A stretch of 64,000 bases of DNA. Origin: Candidatus Enterousia sp. GTDB taxonomy: Bacteria; Pseudomonadota; Alphaproteobacteria; Rs-D84. Within the stretch, counting starts at the first letter, position 1, and each line of letters begins with the position of its first letter. The notes below the pieces were generated by a model. It had not been told where the DNA came from and ran no database searches. It saw only the letters and a list, made by a program, of their open reading frames with translations. Below are positions 9,838 to 58,348 of the stretch, one piece after another. The position numbers were made by a program, and so were the translations under genes. The stretch covers positions 20,108-84,107 of the forward strand of contig JAZLDI010000021.1 in assembly GCA_045614665.1 (NCBI GenBank), given 5' to 3'.

Positions 9838-9868
9838 TAAAAATGCCGGCAAACGCCGGCATTGTTTT
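9838..9868. terminator. rho-independent terminator (bidirectional)
   Basis: aaaatgccggcaaacgccggcattgtttt. Confidence 0.55.
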
Positions 9869-11084: not shown

Positions 11085-11104
11085 ATTTGCGCCCTGCCCC
11101 GATA

Positions 11105-11827
11105 TTATAAGTTGTTGTCGTTCTTTGGGATTTTTCCGTCATAGTTTATCTTTCCATCACGAATGTGAATCAGTCTGTCTGCATATTTTGCAATATCAAA
11201 TTCGTGTGTAATCATAACAATAGTAATCCCCAGGTCTTTGTTTAATTCCTTGAAGAATTTCAATATTTCATTACCCATTTTACTGTCTAGCGCGCCTGTC
11301 GGCTCGTCCGCCAGGATTAACTTTGGTTCGCCCGCCAATGCGCGTGCAATCGCGACGCGTTGCTTCATACCACCCGATAATTGTGTTGGTAAATAAGATG
11401 CAAAGTTTTCCAGTCCCACACGCTTTAACATTTCGCGCGCACGCCGTTCGCGTTCTTCGTGTGTCATACCGCGATACATCAGTGGCAACATTACATTGTC
11501 CAATACACTGCGCTTTGGTAATAAATTAAACTGTTGAAAAACAAAGCCAATATATTCATTTCGCACCAATGCTAATTCATCCGTACTTAATCCAGTCACA
11601 TCATTGCCATACAGTTCGTACACCCCACTGGTCGGTGTATCCAGCGCGCCAATGATATTCATACAGGTTGATTTCCCAGATCCAGACGGCCCCATAATCG
11701 CAACAAATTCACCGGCCTTGACCGTGAAATTGATGTCGAATAAAACCTGTTGCTCGCCCCCCAGTTCCAGTGGGAAACTTTTGTTAATGTCTTTCAGCGA
11801 AATGATAATCTCGGATGATTTTTTCAT
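11105..11827 (-). CDS. ABC transporter ATP-binding protein (LolD/MacB-type ATPase)
   Basis: Walker A GPSGSGKST, ABC signature LSGGMKQRVAIARAL, Walker B ILADEPTGALD. 240 aa. Confidence 0.85.
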   Translation of the reverse strand: MKKSSEIIISLKDINKSFPLELGGEQQVLFDINFTVKAGEFVAIMGPSGSGKSTCMNIIGALDTPTSGVYELYGNDVTGLSTDELALVRNEYIGFVFQQFNLLPKRSVLDNVMLPLMYRGMTHEERERRAREMLKRVGLENFASYLPTQLSGGMKQRVAIARALAGEPKLILADEPTGALDSKMGNEILKFFKELNKDLGITIVMITHEFDIAKYADRLIHIRDGKINYDGKIPKNDNNL

Positions 11828-33408: not shown

Positions 33409-34128
33409 ATGAGATGGTTTTCCAAAAAATCAGATAAAATTTCAGGTGTTGTACAATTACGCGGTTCTAATAACCGCGTAATTATTATTGAATGTGGCAT
33501 CGAGCGACCGTTGCATCGCAATGCAAATATTCCTGGTCTGGATATAATAGTTGTCGGCAATAACAACACGATAAAAATAGAGATGCCATTTAATAGCCAC
33601 AATTCGTCAATATTTATTATGAATGATGGGGTTAATATTGAATTGGGGCGAACCTCGGCATTTTCAAATGTTAAAATAGTATGCCGGAACGGTCATAGAC
33701 AGGTTTGCAAAATTGGTTGTGATACAACAATAAATGGTGCCATCATTGAACTGCCAGAATCCAGTGGTCTTATTATAGGTGAAGGCTGCTTGTTGTCTGA
33801 TAATATAAAAATCTGGGGCAGTGACGGCCATTCTATTATTGATGCGGATACAATGGAAATAATAAATCCCGTGATGGAACCGATAGTAGTTGGTAATCAT
33901 GTATGGGTTGGTGAATCTGTGATATTCACAAAAAATGCATCTGTTGCGCAAGATTCGGTTGTTGGTGCAGGAACCGTGTGTTGTAAAAAATATACAGAAC
34001 CCAATGTTATTATCGCGGGCAATCCCGGAAGAATTATTCGTAAAAATATTCTGTGGAACAGATATAATCCAACAAAACTAATTTCTGATATAGAGAAGAT
34101 TTCTGCAAAATGGGAACCGCGCAAATAG
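33409..34128 (+). CDS. hexapeptide-repeat (left-handed beta-helix) acyl/acetyltransferase
   Basis: Imperfect hexapeptide repeats and the C-terminal GNPGRIIRK motif typical of sugar O-acetyltransferases. Starts 18 nt after infB with a GAGG Shine-Dalgarno motif. Confidence 0.55.
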   Translation: MRWFSKKSDKISGVVQLRGSNNRVIIIECGIERPLHRNANIPGLDIIVVGNNNTIKIEMPFNSHNSSIFIMNDGVNIELGRTSAFSNVKIVCRNGHRQVCKIGCDTTINGAIIELPESSGLIIGEGCLLSDNIKIWGSDGHSIIDADTMEIINPVMEPIVVGNHVWVGESVIFTKNASVAQDSVVGAGTVCCKKYTEPNVIIAGNPGRIIRKNILWNRYNPTKLISDIEKISAKWEPRK

Positions 34129-34153: not shown

Positions 34154-35488
34154 TTATTTTGTTCTGTTTATGCGTCCGGTCAGCAACCACCACAATTGTT
34201 GTGCACAACTTGTTTGTTCATTGATTTTACGCAAATGATCAGGGTCACCATTAACATAAAAAACACCTTTCATTAAATTGCGTGCTGGTTTGTCAATTTC
34301 TTTTGGTGCGCCGTTTATTTCTGCAATTGTTTTTCGAATATCACTACGGATGTTTTCGATATTTTGTTTTTGGGTTACACCTGAACACAAATCTTCTGTT
34401 TCGCGCTGAATCATATGTTTTAATTTCTTTGATGGTTTTATTGTATCATCTGTGGCGAAACGCGCAGACGAAAATACAGTTGGTTGTAAATCAACCAATT
34501 GTGCCATTTGTTGATGCAACGAAATAACCTCATTGTTTGCTTCTGCGATTGCCTGGGGCAGGGAATGATGAATTAGCTTGTCCAGTTTTTGTTCGCGTTC
34601 TTTTTGTTTTTTGCTTATTTGCCCGACCGATTTTGGTGCGGTTACCAGACCGAATTTTTTGCCCGGCACAATTGCACGTGATGCTAAATGATTGCGATAT
34701 GTCTTGCGCAGGTTTTGCAGTCTTGATAATCTAAGTCCCAGCATTACGCGACGAAATGCCCACCAAACGGTTTCGTTTGCAATTTTGTGCATACGTTCGT
34801 TTAAATATTTTGGTGGCATTTGTCCCGAATCCATCACGCCTTGGATCAGAATTGCATTCTTGTCCAGCATTGGTCTTGTTGGTGCGTGTTTGCGTGCAAA
34901 TGGGGGCAGCATACCAAAATCATATGCGTGAATATTCTGGATGGTGGTCATATATTTTTCGTGTTTTTCCTGACTAACACCGGTCGGTCTATTGTATTGA
35001 AAGAACTTCATTCGTTCATAAAGATTGTCGTCTGGTTCCGCCTCTTTGCCATTCAGTAAATCGCCATAAAGCCCAAAAATTAAATCAAATGAAATATCTG
35101 AAACAAAGGCGCCACGTGGGGGTTGATTACCCATAATTTTATCAGAATGCATTGCAATTCGATTGTCGTTTCCAATGGCAATAAATTTGTATCCCGATGG
35201 CGCAAATTTATTCATACACGCCAAGATAAGGCGCATATCAAATACGTCCATTTGTTTCTTGATTTCTTTTAGAGCCTCTGCTTTTTGTTCTTTAGCGCGC
35301 TGTGCCGCAACGCGTTTAGCTTCTCTACGTGCATTGTGTTCTGGGTCGCGTGACTGCGTTGGGTTGTCAACATACATCATGCGGCACACACGTTTTTTTC
35401 CCTCGTATACGCGTTTGCGCAACATCATACCGCCAACGGTTGGCTGTGATACAATATTATCTGTTTTGCTTTCAATATTTTCGGTCAT
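34154..35488 (-). CDS. hypothetical cytoplasmic protein (444 aa, no recognisable domain)
   Basis: Long uninterrupted ORF adjacent to tRNA-Val. Charged and helical, no signal peptide or TM. No family recognised. Confidence 0.5.
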   Translation of the reverse strand: MTENIESKTDNIVSQPTVGGMMLRKRVYEGKKRVCRMMYVDNPTQSRDPEHNARREAKRVAAQRAKEQKAEALKEIKKQMDVFDMRLILACMNKFAPSGYKFIAIGNDNRIAMHSDKIMGNQPPRGAFVSDISFDLIFGLYGDLLNGKEAEPDDNLYERMKFFQYNRPTGVSQEKHEKYMTTIQNIHAYDFGMLPPFARKHAPTRPMLDKNAILIQGVMDSGQMPPKYLNERMHKIANETVWWAFRRVMLGLRLSRLQNLRKTYRNHLASRAIVPGKKFGLVTAPKSVGQISKKQKEREQKLDKLIHHSLPQAIAEANNEVISLHQQMAQLVDLQPTVFSSARFATDDTIKPSKKLKHMIQRETEDLCSGVTQKQNIENIRSDIRKTIAEINGAPKEIDKPARNLMKGVFYVNGDPDHLRKINEQTSCAQQLWWLLTGRINRTK

Positions 35489-38369: not shown

Positions 38370-38398
38370 AAAAAATCCCGCTGTGTGGCGGGGTTTTT
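38368..38398. terminator. rho-independent terminator (bidirectional)
   Basis: aaaaaaaatcccgctgtgtggcggggttttt. Confidence 0.6.
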
Positions 38399-39074
38399 AT
38401 CGTGCCGGCGCAATACGCAATTCAATCCGCCGATTGGTCAGGCGTCCGATACCATCCTGGGCGGCAATGGGGCGTGTAGCTCCGCGCCCAACAATAAACA
38501 TACGTGTTGTGTTAATTCCGTGTTGTGCAAAATATACACCAACGCGTTGGGCCATATCTGATGACAGTGCATTTGCCGCCGATGTATTTTGCATTGCATC
38601 GGTATAGCCTGCAACTTCGATAAATGTTGCGTCAAATTTCTTTAATATTTTGCTGATTCTTTTTAATGTATCATCGCCGGTTGCGGATATTTGCGCAGCG
38701 TTTAATTCCATAATCGCATCCCGTACCAGAATTACAACAATCTCTGTCCCTGCGCGTTGAACGGAAATTCCTGGCTTGCGCAGACCGTCATAAAGTGCAA
38801 ATTCCAATTCAGACATATATTTAATAATTCGTGCATTGTCATTGGTTAATTTGTCGCCGTATTCGGAAACAGGTATCGTAACATCATCGTTTAATACCAT
38901 GCGTCCACCCGCCCCCAAATATACGGGGCGTTTTGCAACACGGGCCGTATCGGTCATATCTGTAAAGCTGGCCCCATTCAGGTATTGCATCCAATTTTCG
39001 CGTACCGGACTGACATACGGTGCACACGCCACCATCATTCCAATTAAAAATAAAGACGCAATTTTTTTATGCAT
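38397..39074 (-). CDS. OmpA-family lipoprotein (C-terminal OmpA/MotB peptidoglycan-binding domain)
   Basis: Lipobox MMVACA. C-terminal OmpA-like domain (AGYTD…NRRIEL). Last gene of the dnaX-pilin-ompA transcription unit. Confidence 0.7.
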   Translation of the reverse strand: MHKKIASLFLIGMMVACAPYVSPVRENWMQYLNGASFTDMTDTARVAKRPVYLGAGGRMVLNDDVTIPVSEYGDKLTNDNARIIKYMSELEFALYDGLRKPGISVQRAGTEIVVILVRDAIMELNAAQISATGDDTLKRISKILKKFDATFIEVAGYTDAMQNTSAANALSSDMAQRVGVYFAQHGINTTRMFIVGRGATRPIAAQDGIGRLTNRRIELRIAPAR

Positions 39075-39536
39075 TTATTGAACGATAAAAGAAATTTGAT
39101 TCGTTGGTGTTGAAAAACATCTGTCTGAGTTATCCAGAACCTCGTACCCGTTAATCAGCATTGCCGCCGACCATTGTGGTTTTGTGGTTTGGAAATAAGA
39201 GCATTCGCCCTGGGTTAATTCGGTCAGATTTATTGAAAAGGATTCGCCATCTGTGCTTGCTGTGACGGACCAATTGTCGCCACCCAATGGCGCCTTGTCA
39301 GATTTTAATGCGCCCGCCTTTATTAAATAGTCAACCGATACACCCGAATAATCGCCACGCATTTCCATCAATAATTTAACATCACCTGCAATTTGTTCCA
39401 GTTGCGATGTGGCTATTGTACGGGCATTGTTTTCTCGCATCATACGATACATACCAATTGCCGCCGCCGTCATAACGGTTCCGATTGCAATAACGCCAAC
39501 AATTTCAATCAAAGAACGTCCAGATTCATATCTCAT
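39075..39536 (-). CDS. type IV pilin / pseudopilin-like protein (153 aa)
   Basis: Leader MRYESG then RSLIEIVGVIAIGTVMTAAAIGMY: Gly at -1, Glu at +5, 20-residue hydrophobic helix. C-terminal Cys pair (CSYF…DRCF) like a pilin D-region. The start overlaps the dnaX stop (ATGA). Confidence 0.6.
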   Translation of the reverse strand: MRYESGRSLIEIVGVIAIGTVMTAAAIGMYRMMRENNARTIATSQLEQIAGDVKLLMEMRGDYSGVSVDYLIKAGALKSDKAPLGGDNWSVTASTDGESFSINLTELTQGECSYFQTTKPQWSAAMLINGYEVLDNSDRCFSTPTNQISFIVQ

Positions 39537-41643: not shown

Positions 41644-42999
41644 TTGCGTAAACAATCAGGTAATTTTTTAGTCCAGGCGTTATTGGCATTAACATTGATT
41701 TTTGCCTTTATACCATTTATTGCGACGCAACTTGCGGCCCGTAATATTGATGCGCAAATGTATTCATCAACACGCCAGATTGGCAATGCCTCTACCGCGG
41801 CACGTATATTTATTCGCGAAAATGCACGACTGATTTCGTATGGGCAAACGGTTGTTGCCGGGGACGATTTTGCGGATTTGTTGGAACCATATGGGTTGCC
41901 ACTGGGGTTTGTACCGCGTACCCCCATGGGACAGGATATAATTTTGGTTATCAATAAAACGCCAACGGATGTGTCGGCATATTTGGATGTGACTGGTGGT
42001 GGTTTGTCTGAATTAAAGTTGGCTGAATTGGCGCGCAGAATTGGTTTCTATGCGACGTCAATTGATAATGGTGTGCGTGTTGGAATTGTGTTAACCGATG
42101 ACTATTCTGACATTGTTCGTCGGAACGAACCGGACCTGGACAACAGTGGTTTTTTAACAGACATAGATATGGGGAATTTTTCATTTCGTAATGCGGGCAA
42201 TGTGTTTGCATCCGGTGGTGATTTTAATACTGCCCAGTTTACAACCCTTTCGATTGTTGGTACTGAATCTGGTCGCAAGGCGCAAAATGATATAAAAAAT
42301 ATTACCGCCAACAAGACTGTTTTTCAAAGCCGTACGGGTGAGGCTGCCTTGGCTCTGTCGCGTGGAACGTTGTTGTTGGGGACACTGGATGCGCGTACGG
42401 TTTCCAAGTTTGGTGATATGGGAAGCTTTACGGCAAATTCTGCGGCTGTTTATGATTTTTCCATGACGGCTGGACGTACAGCATTTACGGGTCCGGCCAA
42501 ATGGAATGTTCATGGTAATGTTGCATCAAACAAGATGAATTTTAGTGTAGAGCGCCTGGATATAGATTCGCATCTAAACGTTACCCGTGGTCAGGACGTT
42601 TTTATCGACGCCGATACATTGGAATACAGTACAAAAAGCGGGATAGAGGCAGGTACTGTTTATGCGTCCAATATTACTGTTCGTGATCAGACGTCCCAGG
42701 GGTTGTCTGGTGGCTCGTCGGGTGCAACGATTTTGGATATTCGTCCGGCGGGTGTATCTTTATTGCCAGATGTTTTGGTTGATTCTGTTAATAACGACAA
42801 TTTTAAAATTCTAAAAAGTCCAGATGCTGATAACGGCGATACAATTACATGCAAAGACATCATTGTTGATTTTGGTGGCGTTTATAATTCCAAGTCTTTG
42901 GCCCATAATTTAATTTGCCAGTATGTTTTTTGGCAGCGTCTGGAACACAGAATCAAAATAAAACAATGTTTAATGGCGGGTGGCAGTGACTGTATTTAA
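41644..42999 (+). CDS. large prepilin-type N-terminal domain protein (451 aa), paralog 1
   Basis: TTG start. 6-aa basic leader MRKQSG then NFLVQALLALTLIFAFIPFIATQLAA (Gln at +5). Shine-Dalgarno-like AGGGGG upstream. The rest is Thr/Ser/Gly/Asn-rich and predicted beta. C-terminal Cys residues. Confidence 0.55.
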   Translation: MRKQSGNFLVQALLALTLIFAFIPFIATQLAARNIDAQMYSSTRQIGNASTAARIFIRENARLISYGQTVVAGDDFADLLEPYGLPLGFVPRTPMGQDIILVINKTPTDVSAYLDVTGGGLSELKLAELARRIGFYATSIDNGVRVGIVLTDDYSDIVRRNEPDLDNSGFLTDIDMGNFSFRNAGNVFASGGDFNTAQFTTLSIVGTESGRKAQNDIKNITANKTVFQSRTGEAALALSRGTLLLGTLDARTVSKFGDMGSFTANSAAVYDFSMTAGRTAFTGPAKWNVHGNVASNKMNFSVERLDIDSHLNVTRGQDVFIDADTLEYSTKSGIEAGTVYASNITVRDQTSQGLSGGSSGATILDIRPAGVSLLPDVLVDSVNNDNFKILKSPDADNGDTITCKDIIVDFGGVYNSKSLAHNLICQYVFWQRLEHRIKIKQCLMAGGSDCI

Positions 43000-44191
43000 A
43001 ACAAAAATTTTTACAGATGAAAATCGTGGCGCCAGTGTTATGGAAGTCTTACTGGCGCTGGGGATTGTTGCGCTGGCGACACCGTTTGTGTATTCCCAAA
43101 TTTCGCGCAGCACCCAAACCGTACGCGATATGGCGCACGCAAAACAAATTATGGATGTTCGTGATAATGTTTTGAACTTTGTTCGTATGAATCAGGACAA
43201 ATGGCCAGATGTTGCACAAATAAGATTAGATGAAGATGAATTGCGCGCAATATCTGATGTGCCGGTTGCGGGATTGATTGATAAATATTCTGTGCGTGGT
43301 GCGACAATAACGGATGTGTATTTGGCGTACGAAATCGGTGATGATTTAATGACGACCGCGCGTATTGCGTCGCATATTGGCTCTGATGCGGCAGTTGTGT
43401 CTGATGATGGTGTGGCGTATGGTCCGTCTTGGGCGGCGGCGGCACCGGATTTTGCACCGGGTGATTTGGTTTATCGTATAACACGTGATGTGTCTGGATC
43501 GGATACGTCGCGATATTTACATCGTGCAACATCGGGCGAAGACAAATTAAATGTCATGTTCCGTGATTTAAATATGGGGGGCTACAATGTATACAATACT
43601 GCGTCCATCCTTGCTGATTCGGTGCGTTCAAATAATGCCACTGCATTTTTTGTAAACGCAGACGATATCGCGGCGGAAAATGTATACTTTTCATCTGGGG
43701 CAAATATGGATGGCGGCGATGTCTTTATTAACAGTATGCGTGTGTCTGGGGATATAACTGGCTTTAAAAATATTTATGCTGATAAAATGAATGGTACTAC
43801 ATACACAACATCTGGTCGTATTATCGCGGACAAGGCAACGGTTGCAAATTCTATAAATATTTCGCGTGACTTGATTTTGAAATCAGATTCGACAAAAACA
43901 ATAAGTGGGTTTACAGGTATTACAACCGGGACGGTTTTGGCGCCATTTTTATCAACCGAAGAAATTGTTTTTTACGAAGATTTCGGCCTAACGGTATCTG
44001 GTGAATTGTTAATGTCAACGGTTGCGCCGTTACAGATTGGGCGTTGGGTATTTCCATCAACGACACCTCCGCGTTTTTCACAATTTACCATATCGCGTAC
44101 AACCAATCCATCTATGCCAGATGTGTCAGAATTTAACGCGATAATGAAATCTGGCTGGATGCAGACTGAAACAATAATACCAACGGAATAA
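42980..44191 (+). CDS. large prepilin-type N-terminal domain protein (403 aa), paralog 2
   Basis: GTG start overlapping the paralog 1 end. ...DENRG then ASVMEVLLALGIVALATPFV (Glu at +5). The post-helix region aligns with paralogs 1 and 3 on a Q…I…V..(F/Y)(V/I)RxN pattern. Confidence 0.55.
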   Translation: MAVTVFKTKIFTDENRGASVMEVLLALGIVALATPFVYSQISRSTQTVRDMAHAKQIMDVRDNVLNFVRMNQDKWPDVAQIRLDEDELRAISDVPVAGLIDKYSVRGATITDVYLAYEIGDDLMTTARIASHIGSDAAVVSDDGVAYGPSWAAAAPDFAPGDLVYRITRDVSGSDTSRYLHRATSGEDKLNVMFRDLNMGGYNVYNTASILADSVRSNNATAFFVNADDIAAENVYFSSGANMDGGDVFINSMRVSGDITGFKNIYADKMNGTTYTTSGRIIADKATVANSINISRDLILKSDSTKTISGFTGITTGTVLAPFLSTEEIVFYEDFGLTVSGELLMSTVAPLQIGRWVFPSTTPPRFSQFTISRTTNPSMPDVSEFNAIMKSGWMQTETIIPTE

Positions 44192-44192
44192 A

Positions 44193-45524
44193 ATGACAAA
44201 AAGATACGGTATTTTTTCTGATTTTATGCATAACCCTGCTCGTGGCAGCATGCTTGTTGAATTACTGCTAAGTGTGGCGTTGGCGGCATTGGTGATTCCT
44301 TTTATTTTTCAGTATCACCAAAATGCAGCTGTTCGTACCCAGAATATTGCAATAACACAAAATATGAACGCGGTTCAAAATGTTCTGGAGCGGTATATCG
44401 TTGAAAATCGTACCGATTTACTGCGTACTGTTGGAAAAAATATTACGCGTGTAAATATTGCAGACTTAACAGAATATGGTTTGTCACCAACTCTTGTTCA
44501 GGATGCTGATAAATACCAGTTGCGCATCTTAAAGTCAACTGACACCACGGGCAGCGCGACATTACAAGGTGTTGTTGTTTATACATCATCGGATATTACA
44601 CCAATTCGTACCCGCGAAATTGTAAACATTGGTGGGGCGAATATGGGGTTTGTTGATGGTACGCGTGCGTATGGCGCATATGGTGCGTGGCGTAACGATA
44701 TTTCTGATATCGGCATCGATGCCCGTGATGGTATTGTCGGCACCACATCGGTAAAGCGTGATGCTGCATTATATCTGTCACGTTTACCGTCTGATAATAT
44801 TGACGATGCAACAATGATGTCGCCGTTTAATCTTGGGGGGCACGATATTATAAATGCTCGGTTCTTTGATGCGTCTACTATTCAATTTGCAGAAGATTTG
44901 AATATAAAGTCTGGTGTGGTTCGTGACTTGATATTTCAAAATCGCACAGCGATTGACACAACGTATACGTCTGAAACTGCAACAGTCTCGGGTGGTTTGT
45001 CGTCAGATGGTCGTACAATGGAAATTTCTGGCAAGTTTCTTCTTGCAGACGTGGGCAAGTTTTCATCATTCACAGTAGGTGATTTGTGGACATCGACGAT
45101 GACATTGTCTGGATTGTCGATCAGTGCATATGATGAATATTATCGCGAACAGCCCGCAATATTAAAGATTGCTGGATCTTTGGATATGACGGCGGGGCGC
45201 ATAGAATCGCTTTATACAACGGTTGGTTTTGCAGGGTCGATTACACCACGTTTGGTTGTGTATGATCGTATAGAGGATTCTAAAAATTCTGATTATTATT
45301 GGGATGTGGATAAATCGTCGGCAAACTTTGCGGACGTGACATTAGCGGAACTTAATCGCTTGGCAACATTGGCGGCGCATTTCGAGAAGGTTCCCGGTAC
45401 AGACAGCGCTACCTTGTTTGGTGGTGTGACCGCGAACAAGAATGCGACGGCGGCGGATTTTATGAATGCTATTCGTGAAATTCAGACCCGTGTTCGTGCG
45501 AAATATCGCCTGTTGAATTTGTAA
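44193..45524 (+). CDS. large prepilin-type N-terminal domain protein (443 aa), paralog 3
   Basis: ATG 1 nt after the paralog 2 stop. ...HNPARG then SMLVELLLSVALAALVIPF (Glu at +5). An alternative internal ATG gives a 7-aa leader MHNPARG. Confidence 0.55.
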   Translation: MTKRYGIFSDFMHNPARGSMLVELLLSVALAALVIPFIFQYHQNAAVRTQNIAITQNMNAVQNVLERYIVENRTDLLRTVGKNITRVNIADLTEYGLSPTLVQDADKYQLRILKSTDTTGSATLQGVVVYTSSDITPIRTREIVNIGGANMGFVDGTRAYGAYGAWRNDISDIGIDARDGIVGTTSVKRDAALYLSRLPSDNIDDATMMSPFNLGGHDIINARFFDASTIQFAEDLNIKSGVVRDLIFQNRTAIDTTYTSETATVSGGLSSDGRTMEISGKFLLADVGKFSSFTVGDLWTSTMTLSGLSISAYDEYYREQPAILKIAGSLDMTAGRIESLYTTVGFAGSITPRLVVYDRIEDSKNSDYYWDVDKSSANFADVTLAELNRLATLAAHFEKVPGTDSATLFGGVTANKNATAADFMNAIREIQTRVRAKYRLLNL

Positions 45525-45547
45525 TTATTTGTGGTATAAGTATAGAT

Positions 45548-46072
45548 ATGAAAATAACATGTGATTTTTGTAAAACAGAATATAATACCCCGTCGCGTGC
45601 GGGCGCAGCCGTGCGTTGCGCGGTGTGTGGCAATACATGGACGGTGCCAATGCCTGCGCGCAAGAATGCGTTTTTAATGTTTTTTGCGTCTTTGTGTGCA
45701 TTGTTGTCTGTAATTGTATTTGTTGTTGCGGTTGTTGTAACGCACAAGCCGAATCCGGAACGCGATGCTCCATTGGTTGCGCGTGTGACTGGACACGAAA
45801 TTGTGACAAACGACGATGGTGCACGTAATTTGAAAGTATCTGGTACGGTTTATAACCAGACGTCAGATATCTATGGTATGCCGGATATAATGATTGTTTT
45901 GCGTGATGCGGACGGCCGCACAATTGCTAGCCAGAAATTTATGCCATCTGCAACATTGATTGACGCGGGTGGTACATCAAATTTCACATATACTTTGTCT
46001 GGTCCGGTATCACCGGATATAAAAAGCATAGATGTACGCTTGGTTGTCGATGGGGGACAGGATGAAAAATAA
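45548..46072 (+). CDS. zinc-ribbon (MJ0042-type CxxC…CxxC) plus TM plus DUF3426-like domain protein
   Basis: N-terminal CDFC…CAVC zinc ribbon, a single TM (LMFFASLCALLSVIVFVVAVVV), a periplasmic beta-rich domain. 174 aa. Confidence 0.55.
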   Translation: MKITCDFCKTEYNTPSRAGAAVRCAVCGNTWTVPMPARKNAFLMFFASLCALLSVIVFVVAVVVTHKPNPERDAPLVARVTGHEIVTNDDGARNLKVSGTVYNQTSDIYGMPDIMIVLRDADGRTIASQKFMPSATLIDAGGTSNFTYTLSGPVSPDIKSIDVRLVVDGGQDEK

Positions 46073-46532
46073 AATATACTCAGTTTTACTTGGTTGTATA
46101 TTGTCCGTGGCGGCAAATGCGGCAACGGAAACGCCGATACAGCCACGTGTGTCCATTTTTTCCACCAGCACTGATTGGGAGGCTGTAACCGGTCGTCCCC
46201 TGAATGAATATTATGGAAAATTTAGTGGTCGTTCATCGCTGATTGGTCGTGGTTTAATGCTGTACTATCTGGATGGTTTTCCGTGTTATGGCCTTGGGGG
46301 CAGTGTCCAGGCCTGGGTTGGTCCTAACGGTGATTCGTCACATCGATTGCGTCTAGCTTGCGTGGCGGCGCCCAAGACAATAAACTTTGCATGGGTTCAT
46401 GCATCGCGTGACGCGGACGACCAAACAACAACGGGAATTTTGACATGTGAAATTGATGGCGATGGCGGTCGTGATTTTGAAATTGACTTGTCGCGTTGTA
46501 CACGTGGCCCCGATTGGGATGATTATGAATAA
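46062..46532 (+). CDS. small secreted cysteine-containing hypothetical protein
   Basis: GGGGGACAGG Shine-Dalgarno motif, then ATG at 46062. Signal peptide MKNKIYSVLLGCILSVAANA. Four or more Cys. The start overlaps the end of the preceding gene. Confidence 0.45.
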   Translation: MKNKIYSVLLGCILSVAANAATETPIQPRVSIFSTSTDWEAVTGRPLNEYYGKFSGRSSLIGRGLMLYYLDGFPCYGLGGSVQAWVGPNGDSSHRLRLACVAAPKTINFAWVHASRDADDQTTTGILTCEIDGDGGRDFEIDLSRCTRGPDWDDYE

Positions 46533-46546
46533 GGGGTTTGTTTTTT

Positions 46547-47506
46547 ATGTCGGATATTCGCGAATTTGTTGTAGATGATGAAAGTGTGGGCGTTCGTATT
46601 GATAAGTTCTTGTCCGCACAAATGCCTGAATTTTCACGCAGTGAAATTCAAAAGTTTACCGTCACACGCGGTGGCACCTTGATAAAGTTTTCAGAAAAAA
46701 CACGTGCTGGCGATGTGTTTTCTGTAACGGTGTCGACCCCACAGACAAAAAACGCAACCGACAATGTTTCATCAGATTTTGATTTGGATATTTTGTTCGA
46801 AGACGACGATATTATTGTGATAAATAAACCGCGTGGTGTTGTTATGTATCCATCGGCGGGTAATAACACTGGAACATTGGTTCAAAATATCTTGGCACAT
46901 ACACATTTATCCGCATTGGGTGGTGATACGCGTCCCGGCGTTGTGCACAGATTGGACAAGGATACCAGTGGCGTTATGGTTTTTGCAAAATCTGATGCTG
47001 CATACCGCGCATTGGTAAAAATGTTTTCAGAACACAATTTAACCCGCAAATATGTGTGTTTTGCATGGGGAATTCCAAACTGGGAAGATGCCACAATAAC
47101 CGGCAATATCGCGCGTTCATCCCGCAATCGTCAGAAAATGACAATGGTAAAGTCTGGGGGTAAACACGCCCATACCGATGTGGCGGTTATAAATGCATTT
47201 CCGCGTGCTGGCGTGACCCAGTTTCGTTGTACATTGATGACGGGGCGTACGCACCAGATACGTGTTCACTTGTCCGCGCACGGTTTTCCTGTTTTGTGTG
47301 ATCCGATTTATGGACGCGGCTCGTCACGTCTGGGGTCTGTGCGAGATGCAGATTTGCTGGATTTTTTACGTAATCACGATGGTCAAATGTTACATGCAGA
47401 ATTGCTGGAATTTACGCATCCTGTAACGGGCGCGCAAATGCGGTTTAAAACGCGTCTTCCCGACGATATGGAAGAATTAAGATATTTGCTTACTGAAATT
47501 GGATAA
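46547..47506 (+). CDS. rluD: 23S rRNA pseudouridine synthase, RluA/RluD family
   Basis: S4-like N-terminus and catalytic HRLDKDTSGVMVFAK motif. The ORF track starts at a TTG at 46538; the ATG at 46547 has the better Shine-Dalgarno motif. Confidence 0.85.
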   Translation: MSDIREFVVDDESVGVRIDKFLSAQMPEFSRSEIQKFTVTRGGTLIKFSEKTRAGDVFSVTVSTPQTKNATDNVSSDFDLDILFEDDDIIVINKPRGVVMYPSAGNNTGTLVQNILAHTHLSALGGDTRPGVVHRLDKDTSGVMVFAKSDAAYRALVKMFSEHNLTRKYVCFAWGIPNWEDATITGNIARSSRNRQKMTMVKSGGKHAHTDVAVINAFPRAGVTQFRCTLMTGRTHQIRVHLSAHGFPVLCDPIYGRGSSRLGSVRDADLLDFLRNHDGQMLHAELLEFTHPVTGAQMRFKTRLPDDMEELRYLLTEIG

Positions 47507-47582
47507 TTAAGCGATTTTTGCACTATTTTTCCCTTTCCAAAGCGTTGGTTTTATGTTAAAATAAAACAAAAGTATATGGAGT

Positions 47583-50500
47583 TTGGGAATGTCATTCTTG
47601 AAAAAAACTGTTAGTATGTTGGCTGTTTTCGCCGTATTTCCGGCGGCTTTTGCGGTGACTGCGCGTCCCAGTGTGATGAACACTGTAACGGCAACATCGC
47701 GTCGTTTGCCGACGTTGACTGCGTATATTAATTCTGCGACTTCATCAACATCGACGACAACGTCTTCATCGACAATGTCAGATACCGAATGTGTTGAAGC
47801 GTATACCGAATGTATGAAGGGCGAAGATGCCTGTGGTCCAGAATTCGAAGAATGTACAACCCGTAAATTGTTTCACGGTAAAATGCCGGTGTGCTTGAAT
47901 GTTTTATCACAGTGCTCGTCTGCTGGTGTTAATGATTTGTTTGGGACGTCTGCGATTTCTGCGCTTGGTAATATCAAGACCACGGATTCTGCGACGGGTG
48001 AAATTTTGGATTATACATACCCAACCGATGGCAGTGCGATGGGGCAATGGGTGTCGGCGGCGGCCATTAATAACCAGTATGATACATCGACATGTGTGAA
48101 ACGTTATACGTCCTGCTTGAACAAGGAAAGTGTTTGTGGTGCCGATTTTGAATTGTGTACATCTACCAAAGATTTCAAGAAACAAGCTTTGTTTTGTGAT
48201 TCAACATTGGCTCGTTGTCAAAGTGCAGGGGTACGCGAACTGTTTGGTGTATATCCATGGACTCCGTCCAGTGCGTCAATTGGTGGTCGTGTGGCGTCTA
48301 TGATTGAAGATGGGGCACAATTGGCGGCGATGAATGCGGTTTCAACGTGTTACAAGGTTGTGGAACAGTGTTTCTTGGGTGCGTGTACGGCCAATCCGTT
48401 CCGTTGTATTGAGGGGGCAACTCTCGAAACTGTAACGGCGGCGAATTTGGCGTCTGAAACATCGGAAAATGCAACGGCTGTATCTGCGTCTGGTGATGTT
48501 TTATCTAAAAGCGATGTTAATCGTTATTTAAAAACATCTTGTTTGGATACAATTGGTGCAAATAAGTATTGTCATATGACGTTCCGTGAAAAAACACCGA
48601 CCAAGGGCGAATTGTCTGATGTCGAAGCTCAAGAAGAAGTGTTTGAGGCGGCAATTGACCAACGTAAAAAATACGTTGATTCTAAAATCCAAGACATAAT
48701 GCAGAAATTTGACACCCGTGCCAAGAACAAATGTTCTGAAACAATTCGTTCATGTGCAATGCGCACCTGTGGCGAAGGGATTGGTTCTGTATGCTATACA
48801 TCTGTATTTAATGGTTCCAATGAATCTATTAACAAAGAATCTACATATGCCCAGATAAAACGCGGTTGTGAATCGATTGTTAATACCGACACAAATTGTC
48901 AGTATGCGTATGCCTCTGTCAAGAACCAGGCCTATTCCTATGCATACTTAAATGACGGGGTGTTTGATACATTGTTCCCGGTATATGATGAAACAACCAA
49001 GTCCGATCCAATTGGTGTTGTTGCATCGTTAAATGCGACATTGTCTAATAATTACAGTATGGCTGCAATTGCAGAGATGAAAAAACAATGCCAATCCGTC
49101 GCGACCAGTTGCGTCAAGACGATGTGTGGTACGGACTATGTAAATTGTTATCGCAATCGTACGGATATTGTTGGCGATTTAACACAAACAGGCGATGCTG
49201 ACTTTGATAAATCAATGAACAAAGCTGGTGGTGTTCTGGATTACACAATCGTATTGGGGCTGTGTATGAACACGGTAAAGGCGGCCGATGTTTGTGATGA
49301 GCATCTTAAAATCGAACAGGCTCGTTTGGCCCAGGGCGCAAATCTTAGCAACAGCTGGGGTGAATCGGCATCTGTGCGTGATGGCTGGATTGATGCTGGC
49401 GGTGCCAAGTCTGTAACGGTTGATACCGAAACAGTTCAAAAGGTTGATGCCAACGGTAATAAAATCTGTGCCAATTCCAAGGGGTACGAGGGTATTTGTT
49501 ACCAGGTTGACAACGATGGCGACGTATATGATGAACCGGTTATGGAATCATATAAAACATATCTGACGAACCAGTCTGCGACCACATTGTTCCGCGAACT
49601 GTTAAGCGATATTGAATACGAGGCCCAGGCAAAATATAACGCCAAACTGACCAAACAGCAAAATATGTGTATGTCGGCAAATTCTGGTGGTGTAATGGGT
49701 AAAAATGATTTGGCCTCTACATTTATGTGGGCGAAATTAAAGAACAACAAGGTTCCGGCCAATTACGCAACGGCCGGTCTGAAACCAAACCAGGTTGTGG
49801 CCAGTAATGAATTGTATGGTTCTTTCTGTCGGGTACGTGTAAACATTCAATCCGACGACAAAGATATCCAAGATGCCATTAACAAGGGCGCAGATTGGGC
49901 AACGGCATACTTTGCCGCCGGCGACGCCTTTACCTGTGGCAGCTGGATAAGTGGCAATGATTTGGAAAAAATTGCCGAAGTCGTTGGCAAGGACGCCCGT
50001 GCGGATAAAGAAAAGACCCAGGCTAAAAATCTTGAATGGTGGTTGGCGCCAATCGCCGCGATTGGAACGGGTGTTGGTGGCGCATACCTGGGGGCGGGCA
50101 TTGCAAACGGTGACGTATTTGGCAAACTGTCCGGTCTGAATTCAAACAAGAAAGATACGAATTCAGTAGAAGCCAGTCAAAAGGGTTGCAAAAACAGTAT
50201 TGATTCTGCAACGACTATATTAGGGTCCAGCGACAACAAGGATTATGGTATTATTGAAATGCATGTAAATGCCGCGATTACAAGCGCAAAAAAACTAGAT
50301 TTGCCAACAACTACTGTAGAAGGATACTTAAAAACATATAAAGAAAAGGTTGATGCATATAAGAGTGATGCAAACAAGAAAACAGAGGCTGAAACCGCTA
50401 ATGAAAACCTGAAAAATGGCTTAGGCGCGTTGAAAAATTTGTGTGAGGCGGGAAGCAACAATGAAGAAGAAAATTCTGCCAAGAAAACGCAAACGGCGGC

Positions 50501-50705
50501 GGGGATAACCGGTGCAATAACGGCGGTTGGCGGTGGCATAATGACATTCTTTGCGACCAAGGCGATTAAAAATGCCATCCTGGACAAGGCCGAACAAGAG
50601 GCATATGATACCTTTATGAATGAAATTGGTAATCATATCTACTGTTACATCGGCGGTGAAGAGGCCGGTCAATACGGCGACGTCATTGCCACCAGTATGG
50701 AATAA
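47583..50705 (+). CDS. large secreted cysteine-rich repeat protein with C-terminal membrane anchor (1040 aa)
   Basis: Signal peptide (…FPAAFA), Ser/Thr-rich linker, about 50-aa Cys-rich modules in at least two clear copies plus degenerate ones, two C-terminal hydrophobic segments. No recognised family. Confidence 0.65.
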   Translation: MGMSFLKKTVSMLAVFAVFPAAFAVTARPSVMNTVTATSRRLPTLTAYINSATSSTSTTTSSSTMSDTECVEAYTECMKGEDACGPEFEECTTRKLFHGKMPVCLNVLSQCSSAGVNDLFGTSAISALGNIKTTDSATGEILDYTYPTDGSAMGQWVSAAAINNQYDTSTCVKRYTSCLNKESVCGADFELCTSTKDFKKQALFCDSTLARCQSAGVRELFGVYPWTPSSASIGGRVASMIEDGAQLAAMNAVSTCYKVVEQCFLGACTANPFRCIEGATLETVTAANLASETSENATAVSASGDVLSKSDVNRYLKTSCLDTIGANKYCHMTFREKTPTKGELSDVEAQEEVFEAAIDQRKKYVDSKIQDIMQKFDTRAKNKCSETIRSCAMRTCGEGIGSVCYTSVFNGSNESINKESTYAQIKRGCESIVNTDTNCQYAYASVKNQAYSYAYLNDGVFDTLFPVYDETTKSDPIGVVASLNATLSNNYSMAAIAEMKKQCQSVATSCVKTMCGTDYVNCYRNRTDIVGDLTQTGDADFDKSMNKAGGVLDYTIVLGLCMNTVKAADVCDEHLKIEQARLAQGANLSNSWGESASVRDGWIDAGGAKSVTVDTETVQKVDANGNKICANSKGYEGICYQVDNDGDVYDEPVMESYKTYLTNQSATTLFRELLSDIEYEAQAKYNAKLTKQQNMCMSANSGGVMGKNDLASTFMWAKLKNNKVPANYATAGLKPNQVVASNELYGSFCRVRVNIQSDDKDIQDAINKGADWATAYFAAGDAFTCGSWISGNDLEKIAEVVGKDARADKEKTQAKNLEWWLAPIAAIGTGVGGAYLGAGIANGDVFGKLSGLNSNKKDTNSVEASQKGCKNSIDSATTILGSSDNKDYGIIEMHVNAAITSAKKLDLPTTTVEGYLKTYKEKVDAYKSDANKKTEAETANENLKNGLGALKNLCEAGSNNEEENSAKKTQTAAGITGAITAVGGGIMTFFATKAIKNAILDKAEQEAYDTFMNEIGNHIYCYIGGEEAGQYGDVIATSME
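47787..48249 (+). repeat. intragenic tandem repeat encoding 8-Cys modules (ECVEAYTECMKGEDACGPEFEEC… and TCVKRYTSCLNKESVCGADFELC…)
   Basis: Two roughly 53-aa segments with identical Cys spacing, both ending …CxSAGV(N/R)(D/E)LFG, separated by about 48 aa. Confidence 0.5.
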
Positions 50706-50707
50706 AT

Positions 50708-50737
50708 AAAAAATCCCGCCACATGGCGGGATTTTTT
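50708..50737 (+). terminator. rho-independent terminator
   Basis: aaaaaatcccgccacatggcgggattttttg. Confidence 0.6.
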
Positions 50738-56220: not shown

Positions 56221-56250
56221 AAATCACCCGCAATGCGCGGGTGCTTTTTT
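56219..56250 (+). terminator. rho-independent terminator after murG
   Basis: aaaatcacccgcaatgcgcgggtgctttttt. Confidence 0.55.
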
Positions 56251-56327
56251 ATTTTGATTCCAGTCTATTTTTCCGCTTGCACCAAAATCGTTATTTGTTC
56301 TATGATGATAACGGAAGGAAAGGAATT

Positions 56328-57635
56328 ATGCGTCATATAACTGTATCAATTTTTGCGTTTTTGCTTGCAGTGCCTGCGTTTGCGGATGCAAGGTTGCCGG
56401 TTGTAAACCTGGCGGCCGCTGGGATTTCTGCACGTGCCGCATTCGGAGAGAGTGTACCAACATCAAAAAAACAATTGCCAAAACGGAATGTTGTTGCGCG
56501 TCCTGCGGTTCAGCGTGTTGCCACCCCTGCAAAAATGGCGAATGTGACGGCGACCACGGTTGGCACATCGAATGATATATTGATTCCAAATCGCCCCAGC
56601 AATGATTTATGGGCGCATAATTCTACAAATTTGAACGCATCTGTTGATGCGCCACTGCGTATGCCGACACCATCTGAATTTGCGGTTTATCGCAGTGATG
56701 AAATTTTACCAGAAGAAAGTCTGGATGTTTCTACAATGCCAAAGACGTACGCGTATAATGATGATGCGCCGGTTGTTCCGGCACGCACCGCGGCGGCAAA
56801 AAAAACTGAATTGGATGCCCAGATTGAACGCCTGGTTGAATTACAGCGTCGTGCCGACGAAAGTGTTACGCCAACCAATGTTGCGCCACGCGTGATTGCG
56901 CGCCCAGTGGTTGATGAACCAATTGCGCCACGTGTAGATGATGTACGTGTTGCCGTGGCGGAAGTAATACCCACAGAAACCGTAAATGTGCGTCGTATGG
57001 TTGTGCCAATGGAAACACAGGATGTTATTGTGCGCAGTGTTGAAAAAAATCAATCCCCACGCATTGCAGCGGTGCGCGATGATATGACAAAACTAAGCCC
57101 GTCTGAATTACGTCGTGCATTTCGTAAAACATTCCTGTCGGAAAATAAACATTTATCCACATACCAAATGGATGATTCCTTTGATGTGGTCAGCGATATG
57201 GGCTCGTCATCCGGTTCATTTACATCTTCTCGTGATTTAAGCGAGGATGCAGGCATTCGTCCATTGGAAATAAAAATTAATTTCCGCAATGATGATTCGT
57301 CTTTGTCGCGTGATAACTATAATTTGTTAAGTGAATATGCTGCAATCGTTGTTCATAATCCAACGCGTGCGATTCAGATTGCAATTCCAGCACGCACAAC
57401 GACCGATGTGGATGCGCGAAAATTAACGGCACGCCGTCTGGCTATTGTTGAACAGGTTTTACGTGATACAGGTGTGTCAATGCAACGCATTGTTCCTGTG
57501 TTGTCGCAACGTGACGAAGATGGTTTTGTTTTACGTGTGATATCTAATGAGCAGTATGAAAGCTTGTCCCAGCAAAAACGTAATATCTTTGGCGATACAG
57601 TTTCATCCAAGAAGTATAAAAGTTTAACGTGGTAA
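56328..57635 (+). CDS. secreted Pro-rich protein with degenerate C-terminal OmpA-like domain
   Basis: AAGGAA Shine-Dalgarno motif plus ATG at 56328. Signal peptide MRHITVSIFAFLLAVPAFADA. Pro/Val-rich linker. The C-terminus aligns to the OmpA_C pattern but lacks the GHTD motif. Confidence 0.45.
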   Translation: MRHITVSIFAFLLAVPAFADARLPVVNLAAAGISARAAFGESVPTSKKQLPKRNVVARPAVQRVATPAKMANVTATTVGTSNDILIPNRPSNDLWAHNSTNLNASVDAPLRMPTPSEFAVYRSDEILPEESLDVSTMPKTYAYNDDAPVVPARTAAAKKTELDAQIERLVELQRRADESVTPTNVAPRVIARPVVDEPIAPRVDDVRVAVAEVIPTETVNVRRMVVPMETQDVIVRSVEKNQSPRIAAVRDDMTKLSPSELRRAFRKTFLSENKHLSTYQMDDSFDVVSDMGSSSGSFTSSRDLSEDAGIRPLEIKINFRNDDSSLSRDNYNLLSEYAAIVVHNPTRAIQIAIPARTTTDVDARKLTARRLAIVEQVLRDTGVSMQRIVPVLSQRDEDGFVLRVISNEQYESLSQQKRNIFGDTVSSKKYKSLTW

Positions 57636-58348
57636 AGACCTGGTTAAAATCTGTTGTTGAATTTTTGTTTCCGCCGGCGTGTCCATTATGTGGTACGCCG
57701 GTGTCTGTTCATGGTGAATTATGTGCTGATTGTTGGACGTCATTTAATTGGATAGATGGTGCAAAATGTATCCGCTGTGGTTATCCGTTTATGGTTGATA
57801 TGGATAACGCAATGTGTTCGGTATGTGCGTCGGGTAAATGTGAGCTGGATTGGATACGGTCGGCGTGTGTTTATGATGATGCGTCACGGATGGCGATGCT
57901 GCTATTTAAGCACAGTGGTCGTATTTCATATGCATACTTTATGTCGCGTGCGATGATTTGGGCACTGCGTGATATTGATGTGTCAGATATAGATTTTGTT
58001 ATGCCGGTGCCATTGGCGCGTCGTCGCTTGTTTCATCGTGGTTATAACCAGGCAACATTACTTGCGCGGCCAATTGCACGCGCGTTGGGATTAAAATTGG
58101 ATTATGATTCGGTGCGCCGTAAATACAGGCGTGATATGGGGCACTTAAATTCACACCAGCGTGCACAAAACATTCATGGTGTGTTCAGTGTTTTGTGTCC
58201 AGCAAATATACGTGGTAAAAATATCTTGTTGGTCGATGATGTTATGACGTCTGGCGCGACATTTTCAGAATTGCGCCGTGTGTTAATCAAGGCTGGTGCT
58301 AAAAAAGTCTATGGTGTGACTTTTTGTCGTGTCGTTCATTCTACTTAA
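57629..58348 (+). CDS. comF: ComF family phosphoribosyltransferase-domain protein
   Basis: N-terminal double CxxC zinc finger and a C-terminal PRTase motif (LLVDDVMTSGATF). 239 aa. Confidence 0.75.
   Translation: MVKTWLKSVVEFLFPPACPLCGTPVSVHGELCADCWTSFNWIDGAKCIRCGYPFMVDMDNAMCSVCASGKCELDWIRSACVYDDASRMAMLLFKHSGRISYAYFMSRAMIWALRDIDVSDIDFVMPVPLARRRLFHRGYNQATLLARPIARALGLKLDYDSVRRKYRRDMGHLNSHQRAQNIHGVFSVLCPANIRGKNILLVDDVMTSGATFSELRRVLIKAGAKKVYGVTFCRVVHST

Follow-up and report, generated by a model that had tools for sequence, protein, structure and literature searches.

We analysed a gene for a cysteine-rich protein at positions 47583..50705 (+) of a 64-kb window of Candidatus Enterousia sp. DNA (contig JAZLDI010000021.1 of assembly GCA_045614665.1). 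The window is the whole stretch of 64,000 nucleotides, all coordinates refer to it unless another locus is named, and residue numbers follow the 1040-amino-acid open reading frame (ORF). We found that the protein belongs to a family that is, by the sequence searches described below, closed and confined to Rs-D84-type gut bacteria. This family defines a new disulfide-rich helical domain family, unmatched in the fold libraries searched. Its gene lies beside type IV filament genes in three different arrangements, so that the association is recurrent, although not universal. By analogy with known pilus exoproteins, we tentatively suggest that the protein may be a lineage-specific surface or envelope protein working with a type IVb-like pilus/secretin system, a reading to which we give somewhat less than an even chance. 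A role in contact with other cells is plausible.

Distribution of the protein family

A word-indexed search returned at least 827 relatives of the protein, and the 120 listed ones were mostly near full length. An exhaustive search of 1.84 billion representatives with a hidden Markov model (HMM) gave 267 clusters at 50% identity. The clusters listed were members of the same family or fragments thereof, with no link to other families. Further, relatives were encoded by 231 stretches in species-representative genomes, one of which was a circular genome of 958,618 bp. The labels of these 231 were Candidatus Enterousia, uncultured Alphaproteobacteria or 'Rickettsiales', and their sources were the guts of humans, chickens, ruminants, rabbits and other hosts. 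The distant members (22-30% identity) also derived from metagenome-assembled genomes (MAGs) of uncultured Alphaproteobacteria or Rickettsiales, and we did not observe eukaryotic sequences among the named or listed homologs. Contigs carrying the gene under the labels Bacteroides fragilis or Muribaculaceae were seen as well (L033 on CAVGNU010000002.1, P0062, and P0299 (NC311)); these are probably mis-binned or mislabelled MAGs.

The initial annotation of the gene, made from the sequence alone, had recognised no bacterial family, and our searches agree with it. A Pfam scan at E<=10 gave two noise matches, YqfD and T4_CASP, while searches of NCBIfam and of Protein Data Bank (PDB) sequences gave nothing relevant. 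We found no published description of the protein in the literature. As judged from these comparisons, the family, its cysteine modules, and the shared tail and motif presented below are undescribed and without detectable relatives. Secreted disulfide-rich envelope proteins as a general kind, possibly with a tie to a type IV filament, are already known.

Across Enterousia species the protein was 47-58% identical, as compared with 70-82% for RluD, DnaX and PBP1A; the pilin-like proteins encoded nearby were similar to it in this respect. At greater distance its identity dropped to 25%, while the pilin-like proteins remained at 45-54%. Enterousia belongs to the order Rs-D84, with genomes of approximately 0.75-1.0 Mb that lack respiration and the tricarboxylic acid cycle (PMC12306168). 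The order is also described as lacking synthesis of amino acids, nucleotides and lipids as well as standard transporters, and contact with a partner cell has been suggested for it (PMC12306168).

Predicted structure and cysteine modules

The AlphaFold2 (AF2) model, built with 51 homologs, had a mean predicted local distance difference test (pLDDT) score of 65.8, with values of 70-90 in most domains. The predicted template modelling score (pTM) was 0.34, and therefore the relative placement of the domains is unreliable. The model was mostly alpha-helical, with cysteines at heptad spacing on helices, and its beta regions were short (residues 617-656, 714-784 and 1020-1036). Confidence was low for residues 1-63 and for both Gly-rich segments. 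When the model was searched with Foldseek against PDB and BFVD, all matches had E > 0.01 and were of a generic helical or four-helix-bundle type.

The protein contains 38 cysteines in total. The pattern C-x6-C-x6-C-x6-C-x12-C-x6-C occurs twice, at C70-C111 and at C171-C212. The first copy lies in module A1 (residues ~65-126; 47775..47960, +), a predicted helical hairpin with six cysteines, defined by the cysteine pattern, hhalign and the AF2 model, where the cysteines sit on helices such as H67-78 and H94-109 (pLDDT ~80-87). The second copy lies in module A2 (residues ~166-227; 48078..48263, +), which is homologous to A1 (hhalign 99.2%, E 1.6e-19). The two share 38% identity in protein and 46% in DNA, and thus the duplication is old. 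A divergent clade carries A2 as its sole A module. Two near-identical modules of about 53 residues with eight cysteines each had been proposed initially; the homology of the two stood, but each holds six cysteines and they are far from identical.

A helical cysteine-rich core follows (residues ~235-586; 48285..49340, +), delimited by the cysteine pattern and the AF2 model. It consists of three units in which C-x6-C-x4-C-x6/7-C is followed by a C-x9-C pair, beginning at C256, C384 and C503. One extra C-x9-C pair is formed by C629/C639, and the six lone cysteines are at positions 696, 749, 785, 869, 954 and 1021. The further degenerate modules of the initial annotation could thus be recognised as a recurring cysteine pattern, but these later segments (B1-B4) did not match the A modules or each other significantly in profile comparison with hhalign.

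The next region (residues ~617-824; 49431..50054, +; pLDDT 70-86) comprises a beta-containing part with C629/C639 and a long helix, together with an alpha/beta domain that holds C696, C749 and C785 and is highly conserved; invariant columns are dense in this region. It is followed by Gly-zipper segment 1 (residues ~828-860; 50064..50162, +), with the sequence WWLAPIAAIGTGVGGAYLGAGIANG, a hydrophobicity score (KD19) of 1.29 and low pLDDT. A hypervariable four-helix bundle with the C869/C954 pair comes next (residues ~861-956; 50163..50450, +); residues 860-956 form a confident four-helix bundle in the model (helix pLDDT 70-91). The C-terminal part (50484..50702, +) consists of Gly-zipper segment 2 (residues ~968-995), a helix and a conserved beta-hairpin tail, IYCYIGGEEAGQYGDVIATSME, with C1021, as assigned from AF2, conservation and hydrophobicity.

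Module number was fixed in the family. Of 183 full-length members, 158 had two A modules and 181 had three B motifs, and the divergent clade had a single A module; the length variation of the family was located in the bundle. Therefore the protein is not like copy-number-variable repeat adhesins, and the suggestion of a variable-copy adhesin did not survive this survey.

Signal peptide and mature N-terminus

Both the signal peptide and the Ser/Thr-rich linker proposed initially were present. The Sec-type signal peptide covers residues 3-24 (47589..47654, +), MSFLKKTVSMLAVFAVFPAAFA|V, with predicted cleavage at AFA|V. Its KD19 was 1.99 and it was conserved across the family, where the median was 1.84. 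The mature N-terminus (residues 25-66; 47655..47780, +) was predicted to be disordered (pLDDT 26-36); it carries a conserved bipartite motif, TARPSV ... RR(L/M)PT, after which the linker SATSSTSTTTSSST is found. R28, R41, P43 and T44 were invariant in 51 homologs. ARPS was present in 45 of these 51 and RR[ML]PT also in 45, with degenerate versions at 22-27% identity.

The bipartite motif AR[PV][SAG][VIM]...R[MLI]P[TS] was found in two ORFs of the window, as compared with 0.01 expected from shuffles. These were the cysteine-rich protein itself and a secreted protein of 464 amino acids at 56241-57635 (+), where the motif reads ARPAV...LRMPT. The latter has no Pfam match, and a ComFC-like gene (DZR_2 and Pribosyltran domains) comes after it in the region 56241-58348 (+). 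In locus L089, homologs of this pair of genes sit immediately after the ortholog of the cysteine-rich protein. The post-signal-peptide motif was found also in a small paralog of the protein.

Probable disulfide bonds and topology

We judged cysteine conservation and parity on 65 full-length representatives. Most cysteine columns were retained at 22-27% identity. The number of cysteines in the mature protein ranged from 22 to 48 and was even in 63 of the 65 members, which fits complete disulfide bonding. Partners were deduced from co-loss and parity. C70 and C111 were lost together in P0150, C869 and C954 in four members, and C629 and C639 in three members; C749 and C785 were both gone in one deletion. 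From these data we infer that about 19 disulfide bonds lock the protein. Arguing by elimination, we would draw module A as a twin-CX6C hairpin, with the pairs C70-C111 and C77-C104 and a C84-C91 loop, and C1021 would be the partner of C696.

The protein has two hydrophobic uncharged stretches of 22-23 residues in its C-terminal part and a tail of about 47 amino acids, in accordance with the initial annotation. The membrane anchoring that had been proposed for them was not supported. Both segments are Gly-rich, and their family medians of KD19, 1.34 for segment 1 and 1.47 for segment 2, are below the usual transmembrane threshold and compare with 1.84 for the signal peptide; a value of 1.6 was reached by 6% and 25% of members, respectively. 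In this indirect test, the family did not show two transmembrane-level segments with a cytoplasmic loop between them. The stretch between the Gly-rich segments was 20-324 amino acids long in the family alignment and contained 0, 2, 4, 6 or 8 cysteines, never an odd number. Conservation was lowest in the bundle located there (8-25% per block). One would not expect a loop in the cytoplasm to show such behaviour. Because of the even counts and the co-loss of C869 and C954, we consider this region disulfide-bonded and outside the cytoplasm, and on this indirect evidence the whole mature protein is probably extracytoplasmic.

Modules shared with other secreted proteins

Residues ~686-852, that is the alpha/beta domain with three cysteines and Gly-zipper segment 1, were homologous to small paralogs of 263-302 amino acids (BLASTP E 2e-7; hhalign 99.0%, E 6.9e-18). 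They, too, carry a signal peptide and a Ser/Thr linker, along with an ARPSM or SRRSV motif. They were found at L087 14931-15776, L088 14792-15673, L035 315-1232, L081 17262-18146 (-) and L072 16780-17682 (-).

The last 23 residues of the protein (IYCYIGGEEAGQYGDVIATSM) matched the extreme C-terminus of another cysteine-rich secreted family (hhalign 94.8%, E 5e-8). It consists of five ORFs of approximately 295-600 amino acids (L087 11661-13460 and 18561-19448; L088 12057-13361, 18558-19694 and 19967-20851), each with a Gly/Ala/Thr-rich hydrophobic segment before the tail, and one of them is encoded immediately after a secretin. The N-terminal parts of this family are variable, while the C-terminal ~95 amino acids are nearly identical and end in CxIGGQxVAxWGDEFxVGMQ. 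An HMM of the C-terminal 76 residues of our protein did not recover the family at E<=0.01. A first regular expression for the tail motif was too strict, and a looser version was written after seeing both sequences. Therefore the claim of a shared tail rests on hhalign.

The mature cysteine numbers of the two families were complementary. Four complete tail-sharing proteins had 31, 9, 9 and 21 cysteines, all odd, with exactly one in the tail. Each of four small paralogs with a clear N-terminus had 5, and our protein, which has both modules, has an even number. This parity suggests that the tail cysteine may bond to the alpha/beta domain, within one chain in our protein and between chains in the split families. 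The argument is only suggestive, since the signal-peptide cleavage sites were set by visual inspection and the paralogs cannot be counted as independent.

These observations could be joined into a wider scheme, which we regard as decidedly unlikely. According to it, Rs-D84 bacteria would have a modular surface system of disulfide-rich secreted proteins that share the ARPSV...RMPT motif, a Gly-zipper with an alpha/beta docking domain, and a CxIGG...YGD tail whose lone cysteine bonds to that domain. A type IVb-like pilus/secretin machine would sort these proteins or display them, and our protein would be the fused, self-docking member that exposes its hypervariable bundle via a helical outer-membrane hairpin. 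If true, this would be a new sorting or anchoring mechanism, and likely the contact organ of a Patescibacteria-like, partner-dependent proteobacterium.

Gene neighbourhood

We compared neighbourhoods at 84 loci; loci L085-L091 represent other lineages or regions. The initial annotation had placed the gene directly downstream of a pilin-like cluster and rluD, and its remark on the cluster proved the most useful lead. In approximately 69 of the 84 loci, the gene order was OmpA-like, 153-aa pilin-like, DnaX (minus strand), then pl451, pl403, pl443, Zn174, a 166-aa protein, RluD and the cysteine-rich protein. In Enterousia, the gene closes the same-strand array that runs from pl451 through the ZitP-like Zn174 and RluD.

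The three large pilin-like proteins (451, 403 and 443 amino acids) are encoded by overlapping co-directional genes (41644..45524, +) and have beta-rich C-terminal halves; they were assigned from their N-termini, Pfam matches of orthologs and synteny (66-69 of 84 loci), and the cluster is a possible functional partner of our protein. Prepilin-like G|xxxxE N-termini were present in pl403 and pl443 (G|ASVME and G|SMLVE). N_methyl matched 11 of 29 pl403 orthologs, and Shufflon_N, which represents the constant part of PilV from the R64 thin pilus, matched orthologs of both proteins (2 of 23 and 2 of 29; best E 5.8e-6); all window copies were below threshold. A PDB profile search with pl443 gave a marginal match to the Geopilin N-terminal helix (E 0.015), and the same search with pl403 gave nothing. 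The AF2 model of pl443 was poor (pLDDT 42.8), with a long N-terminal helix and then strands. We found no match for pl451, which has Q in place of E at +5; it carries four conserved C-terminal cysteines.

Zn174 (174 amino acids; 45548..46072, +) is a ZitP-like protein with a zinc ribbon, a transmembrane segment and DUF3426; the Pfam matches, Zn_ribbon_4 (E 1.8e-6) and DUF3426 (E 2.2e-4), both fell short of the gathering cut-offs. Caulobacter ZitP, a factor in pilus biogenesis and cell polarity, has the same architecture, and assembly of the pilus and of its secretin requires the DUF3426 of ZitP (PMC5182063).

Two other arrangements were seen at greater distance. In L090, where the protein is 25% identical, its gene lies between DnaX and the same pilin cluster, just upstream of the cluster, that is on the opposite side as compared with Enterousia. 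In L086, it lies immediately upstream of a TcpQ-domain protein and a secretin with a lipoprotein-signal-like N-terminus. Enterousia-like genomes L087 and L088 have the TcpQ/secretin region without the gene. The secretin, together with the TcpQ-domain protein, was 72-78% identical across the lineage, far above the cysteine-rich protein. The TcpQ/secretin pair is located at 13832-16354 in L086 and at 9048-11629 in both L087 and L088, near S20, PlsY, DprA and DnaA.

Other genes of the window and of the compared loci are given for completeness. The 153-aa pilin-like protein (G|RSLIE, weak N_methyl and PilS matches) is encoded beside an OmpA-domain protein at 38397-39536 (-), and this pair lies upstream of DnaX in 62 of the 84 loci. 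A type IV secretion system coupling protein (VirD4/TraG type) stands beside the OmpA/pilin/DnaX block in the first 1 kb of L001-L003. Three window ORFs had no Pfam match at E<=0.001: 2772-4388 (-), 538 amino acids; 33409-34128 (+), 239 amino acids; and 34154-35488 (-), 444 amino acids.

Start codon and transcription unit

The ORF at 47583..50705 (+) is unbroken and encodes 1040 amino acids when counted from TTG in the ORF list. The sequence GGAG at 47578-47581 lies 7 nt ahead of the ATG at 47589 and merely 1 nt ahead of the TTG at 47583, and homologs begin with MSFLK. Because of this spacing and these homolog N-termini, the annotated TTG start is probably wrong and the ATG at 47589 is probably the real start. 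The coding sequence would then be 47589..50705 (+), with 1038 amino acids. The uninterrupted frame of the initial annotation was thus upheld, but its length probably was not. More than 180 homologs are full length with the same architecture. Therefore the gene is not an artefact of frameshifts or of a fusion of several genes, a possibility that had been raised initially. Its GC content was the same as that of the surrounding genome.

From 41644 to 50705 the genes are co-directional, overlapping or with gaps of at most 76 nt. A consensus scan showed a promoter-like site (TTTCCA-17-TAAAAT with extended TG; 47534..47562, +) in the 76-nt gap past rluD, which is not evidence of function. A canonical intrinsic terminator, AAAAATCCCGCC-ACAT-GGCGGGATTTTTT (CCCGCC-ACAT-GGCGGG and a T run; 50708..50737, +), begins 4 nt past the TAA stop codon. 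PBP1A and MraY come after the gene in the window, and the initial annotation had noted the peptidoglycan synthesis cluster there. We dropped a functional tie to PBP1A, as the terminator lies between and the downstream genes are variable (PBP1A in 10 and MraY in 9 of the 84 loci). Position alone connects the gene with the peptidoglycan cluster.

Proposed role and alternative explanations

A functional parallel is offered by TcpF of Vibrio cholerae and CofJ of enterotoxigenic Escherichia coli. These are Sec-exported type IVb pilus exoproteins, their genes lie beside pilus genes, and their disordered mature N-terminus binds the large minor pilin of the tip (PMC9565799, PMC10120004, PMC6048534). 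In our protein, a signal peptide precedes a mature N-terminus that is predicted to be disordered (pLDDT <36) and contains the conserved motif. At most, but not all, loci its gene neighbours encode candidate PilV-like minor pilins of 400-450 amino acids or, in L086, a TcpQ-secretin pair. An export-signal role of the TcpF/CofJ type for the motif is putative. We did not observe sequence or fold similarity to TcpF or CofJ, and our protein differs from them in its size, about three times larger, its 38 cysteines, its pair of Gly-zipper segments and its conserved tail; pilus-dependent export, binding to a pilin and release are all putative for it.

According to the mechanism that we tentatively favour, the protein would be exported by Sec and its signal peptide removed. 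It would then fold in the periplasm into a mainly helical protein with about 19 disulfides, the mature chain lying wholly outside the cytoplasm. The Gly-zipper segments would not form an inner-membrane hairpin, and would instead flank the hypervariable, disulfide-bonded four-helix bundle. The C-terminal tail would probably dock back on the alpha/beta domain, with C1021 bonded to C696, C749 or C785. The Gly-zipper and tail module may provide membrane association or docking, leaving the bundle exposed. TARPSV...RRMPT in the disordered N-terminus may be what the large PilV-like minor pilins recognise, in the manner of TcpF and CofJ. The protein would be exported or displayed by the type IVb-like pilus/secretin, as a pilus-exported or pilus-tip-associated surface protein, and it would serve contact with the partner cells that these metabolically dependent bacteria need.

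Several observations weigh against this proposal. There was no pilus gene beside the gene in L085, L089, L091 or approximately 10 Enterousia loci with enough flank. An assembly ATPase, a platform protein and a prepilin peptidase were not seen in the window or at any locus; the rest of the window contained housekeeping genes, without a pilus ATPase, platform protein or secretin. A published survey gave type IV pili for another lineage and not for Rs-D84. Synteny is high overall in these small genomes and the array includes the housekeeping genes DnaX and RluD, so the adjacency may be historical. The pilin calls are weak, since they depend on N-terminal motifs and on matches of some orthologs only, with no match for pl451 and a poor model of pl443. 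The arguments from the motif and from parity were formulated in part when the sequences were already known, the AF2 model has a low pTM, and the disulfides are assigned from co-loss and parity. The organism is uncultured. Further, a protein of approximately 1000 amino acids with two hydrophobic segments is unlike known type IVb pilus cargo.

The same data may be read without a pilus. The protein may be a pilus-independent outer-membrane surface protein, in which the Gly-zippers form an oligomeric helical hairpin that displays the bundle, while the conserved cysteine-rich part and the tail stay in the periplasm. We consider this unlikely. It would account well for the position of the most variable region, with its even cysteine counts, exactly between the Gly-rich segments, for two segments too weakly hydrophobic for Sec stop-transfer, for the apparent pairing of the tail and the alpha/beta domain on one side, and for the strong conservation of the remainder, as expected of a non-exposed part. 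However, alpha-helical anchoring in the outer membrane is rare, the protein matches no known family, and the Pfam scan at E<=10 gave no Gly-zipper family, its oligomerisation is purely putative, and the recurrent pilin and secretin adjacency would be left unexplained. Alternatively, the segments could be two transmembrane helices of an inner-membrane-anchored protein with an 800-residue periplasmic domain, a cytoplasmic four-helix loop and a periplasmic tail, acting as an envelope scaffold, perhaps with PBP1A, or as an inner-membrane accessory of the pilus machine. Their length and lack of charge, the 25% of members in which segment 2 reaches a KD19 of at least 1.6, and the position of PBP1A and MraY in the window agree with this, as does the inferred docking of the tail, which would lie on the same membrane side as the ectodomain. 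We find it rather unlikely all the same, as the would-be cytoplasmic loop has even cysteine numbers, a co-lost pair and the highest variability, the median hydrophobicity of both segments is under the threshold, and a terminator precedes PBP1A, which adjoins the gene at few loci.

Glycine zippers are common in pore-forming proteins, and the GxxxG-rich, weakly hydrophobic segments could enter the membranes of partner or competitor cells, with the cysteine-rich part stabilising a secreted effector or toxin in the gut. Extensive disulfide stabilisation and the partner-dependent lifestyle would suit such a protein. We observed no similarity to known toxins and no small immunity-like gene consistently adjoining the gene, which in the loci examined looks like a conserved syntenic core gene, unlike typical toxin loci. 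A toxin therefore seems very improbable to us. The likeness to eukaryotic EGF-like or Cys-knot proteins, which had been drawn initially, did not hold, and a host-acquired repeat adhesin of this type is largely refuted and hardly credible, in spite of the high cysteine content with regular spacing and the gut habitat. The predicted fold is helical and cysteines lie on helices in the AF2 model, where we did not see a small, mainly beta, disulfide-knotted fold of ~30-40 amino acids. There was no EGF-type or other relevant Pfam match at E<=10, and named relatives were all MAGs of gut Alphaproteobacteria or 'Rickettsiales', with no eukaryotic homologs named or listed. Fixed copy number, modules that are merely 38% identical and a GC content like that of the surrounding genome also argue against it.

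Comparison with other known proteins

PilY1/PilC proteins are Sec-exported type IVa pilus proteins of approximately 1000 amino acids that are encoded with minor pilins and are thought to be tip adhesins. Our protein is similar in size, in its Sec signal peptide and in the presence of pilin-like genes nearby; it differs in having no PilY1/PilC-type match in Pfam, in being cysteine-rich, and in being mostly helical with short beta regions in the AF2 model instead of a beta-propeller. Helicobacter Hcp proteins, with Sel1-like repeats, are secreted helical-repeat proteins stapled by disulfides. We found no Sel1 match at E<=10, the cysteine spacing and module size are different, and just two modules are demonstrably homologous. 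Module A also recalls the twin CX9C/CX3C (CHCH) proteins, in which cysteines paired at a fixed spacing on two antiparallel helices make two disulfides. A hairpin of the twin-CX6C type would suit C70-x6-C77 and C104-x6-C111, and the co-loss of C70 and C111 agrees with it. CHCH proteins are mitochondrial, have other spacing and are not homologous to it, and the pairing in module A is putative. Gly-zipper_2TM lipoproteins (SlyB/Pcp and the Rickettsia 17-kDa antigen) have weakly hydrophobic, GxxxG-rich envelope helices. Our protein has no Pfam Gly-zipper match and no lipobox, and its segments are ~115 amino acids apart and do not form a tight hairpin.

Significance

The guts of humans, livestock, birds and probably insects widely harbour Rs-D84 (Enterousia) bacteria, for which contact with partner cells has been proposed. 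A gene of 3.1 kb that is kept in 231 species genomes, with most cysteine positions held at 22% identity, is likely central to their lifestyle. The protein, the three PilV-like pilins, the ZitP-like protein, the TcpQ-domain protein with the secretin, and the two module-sharing paralog families together make a candidate set for the interface of these cells. Since the protein is exported, disulfide-rich, lineage-restricted and repeatedly encoded beside type IV pilus genes, we consider it a good candidate for the cell contact made by these dependent bacteria.

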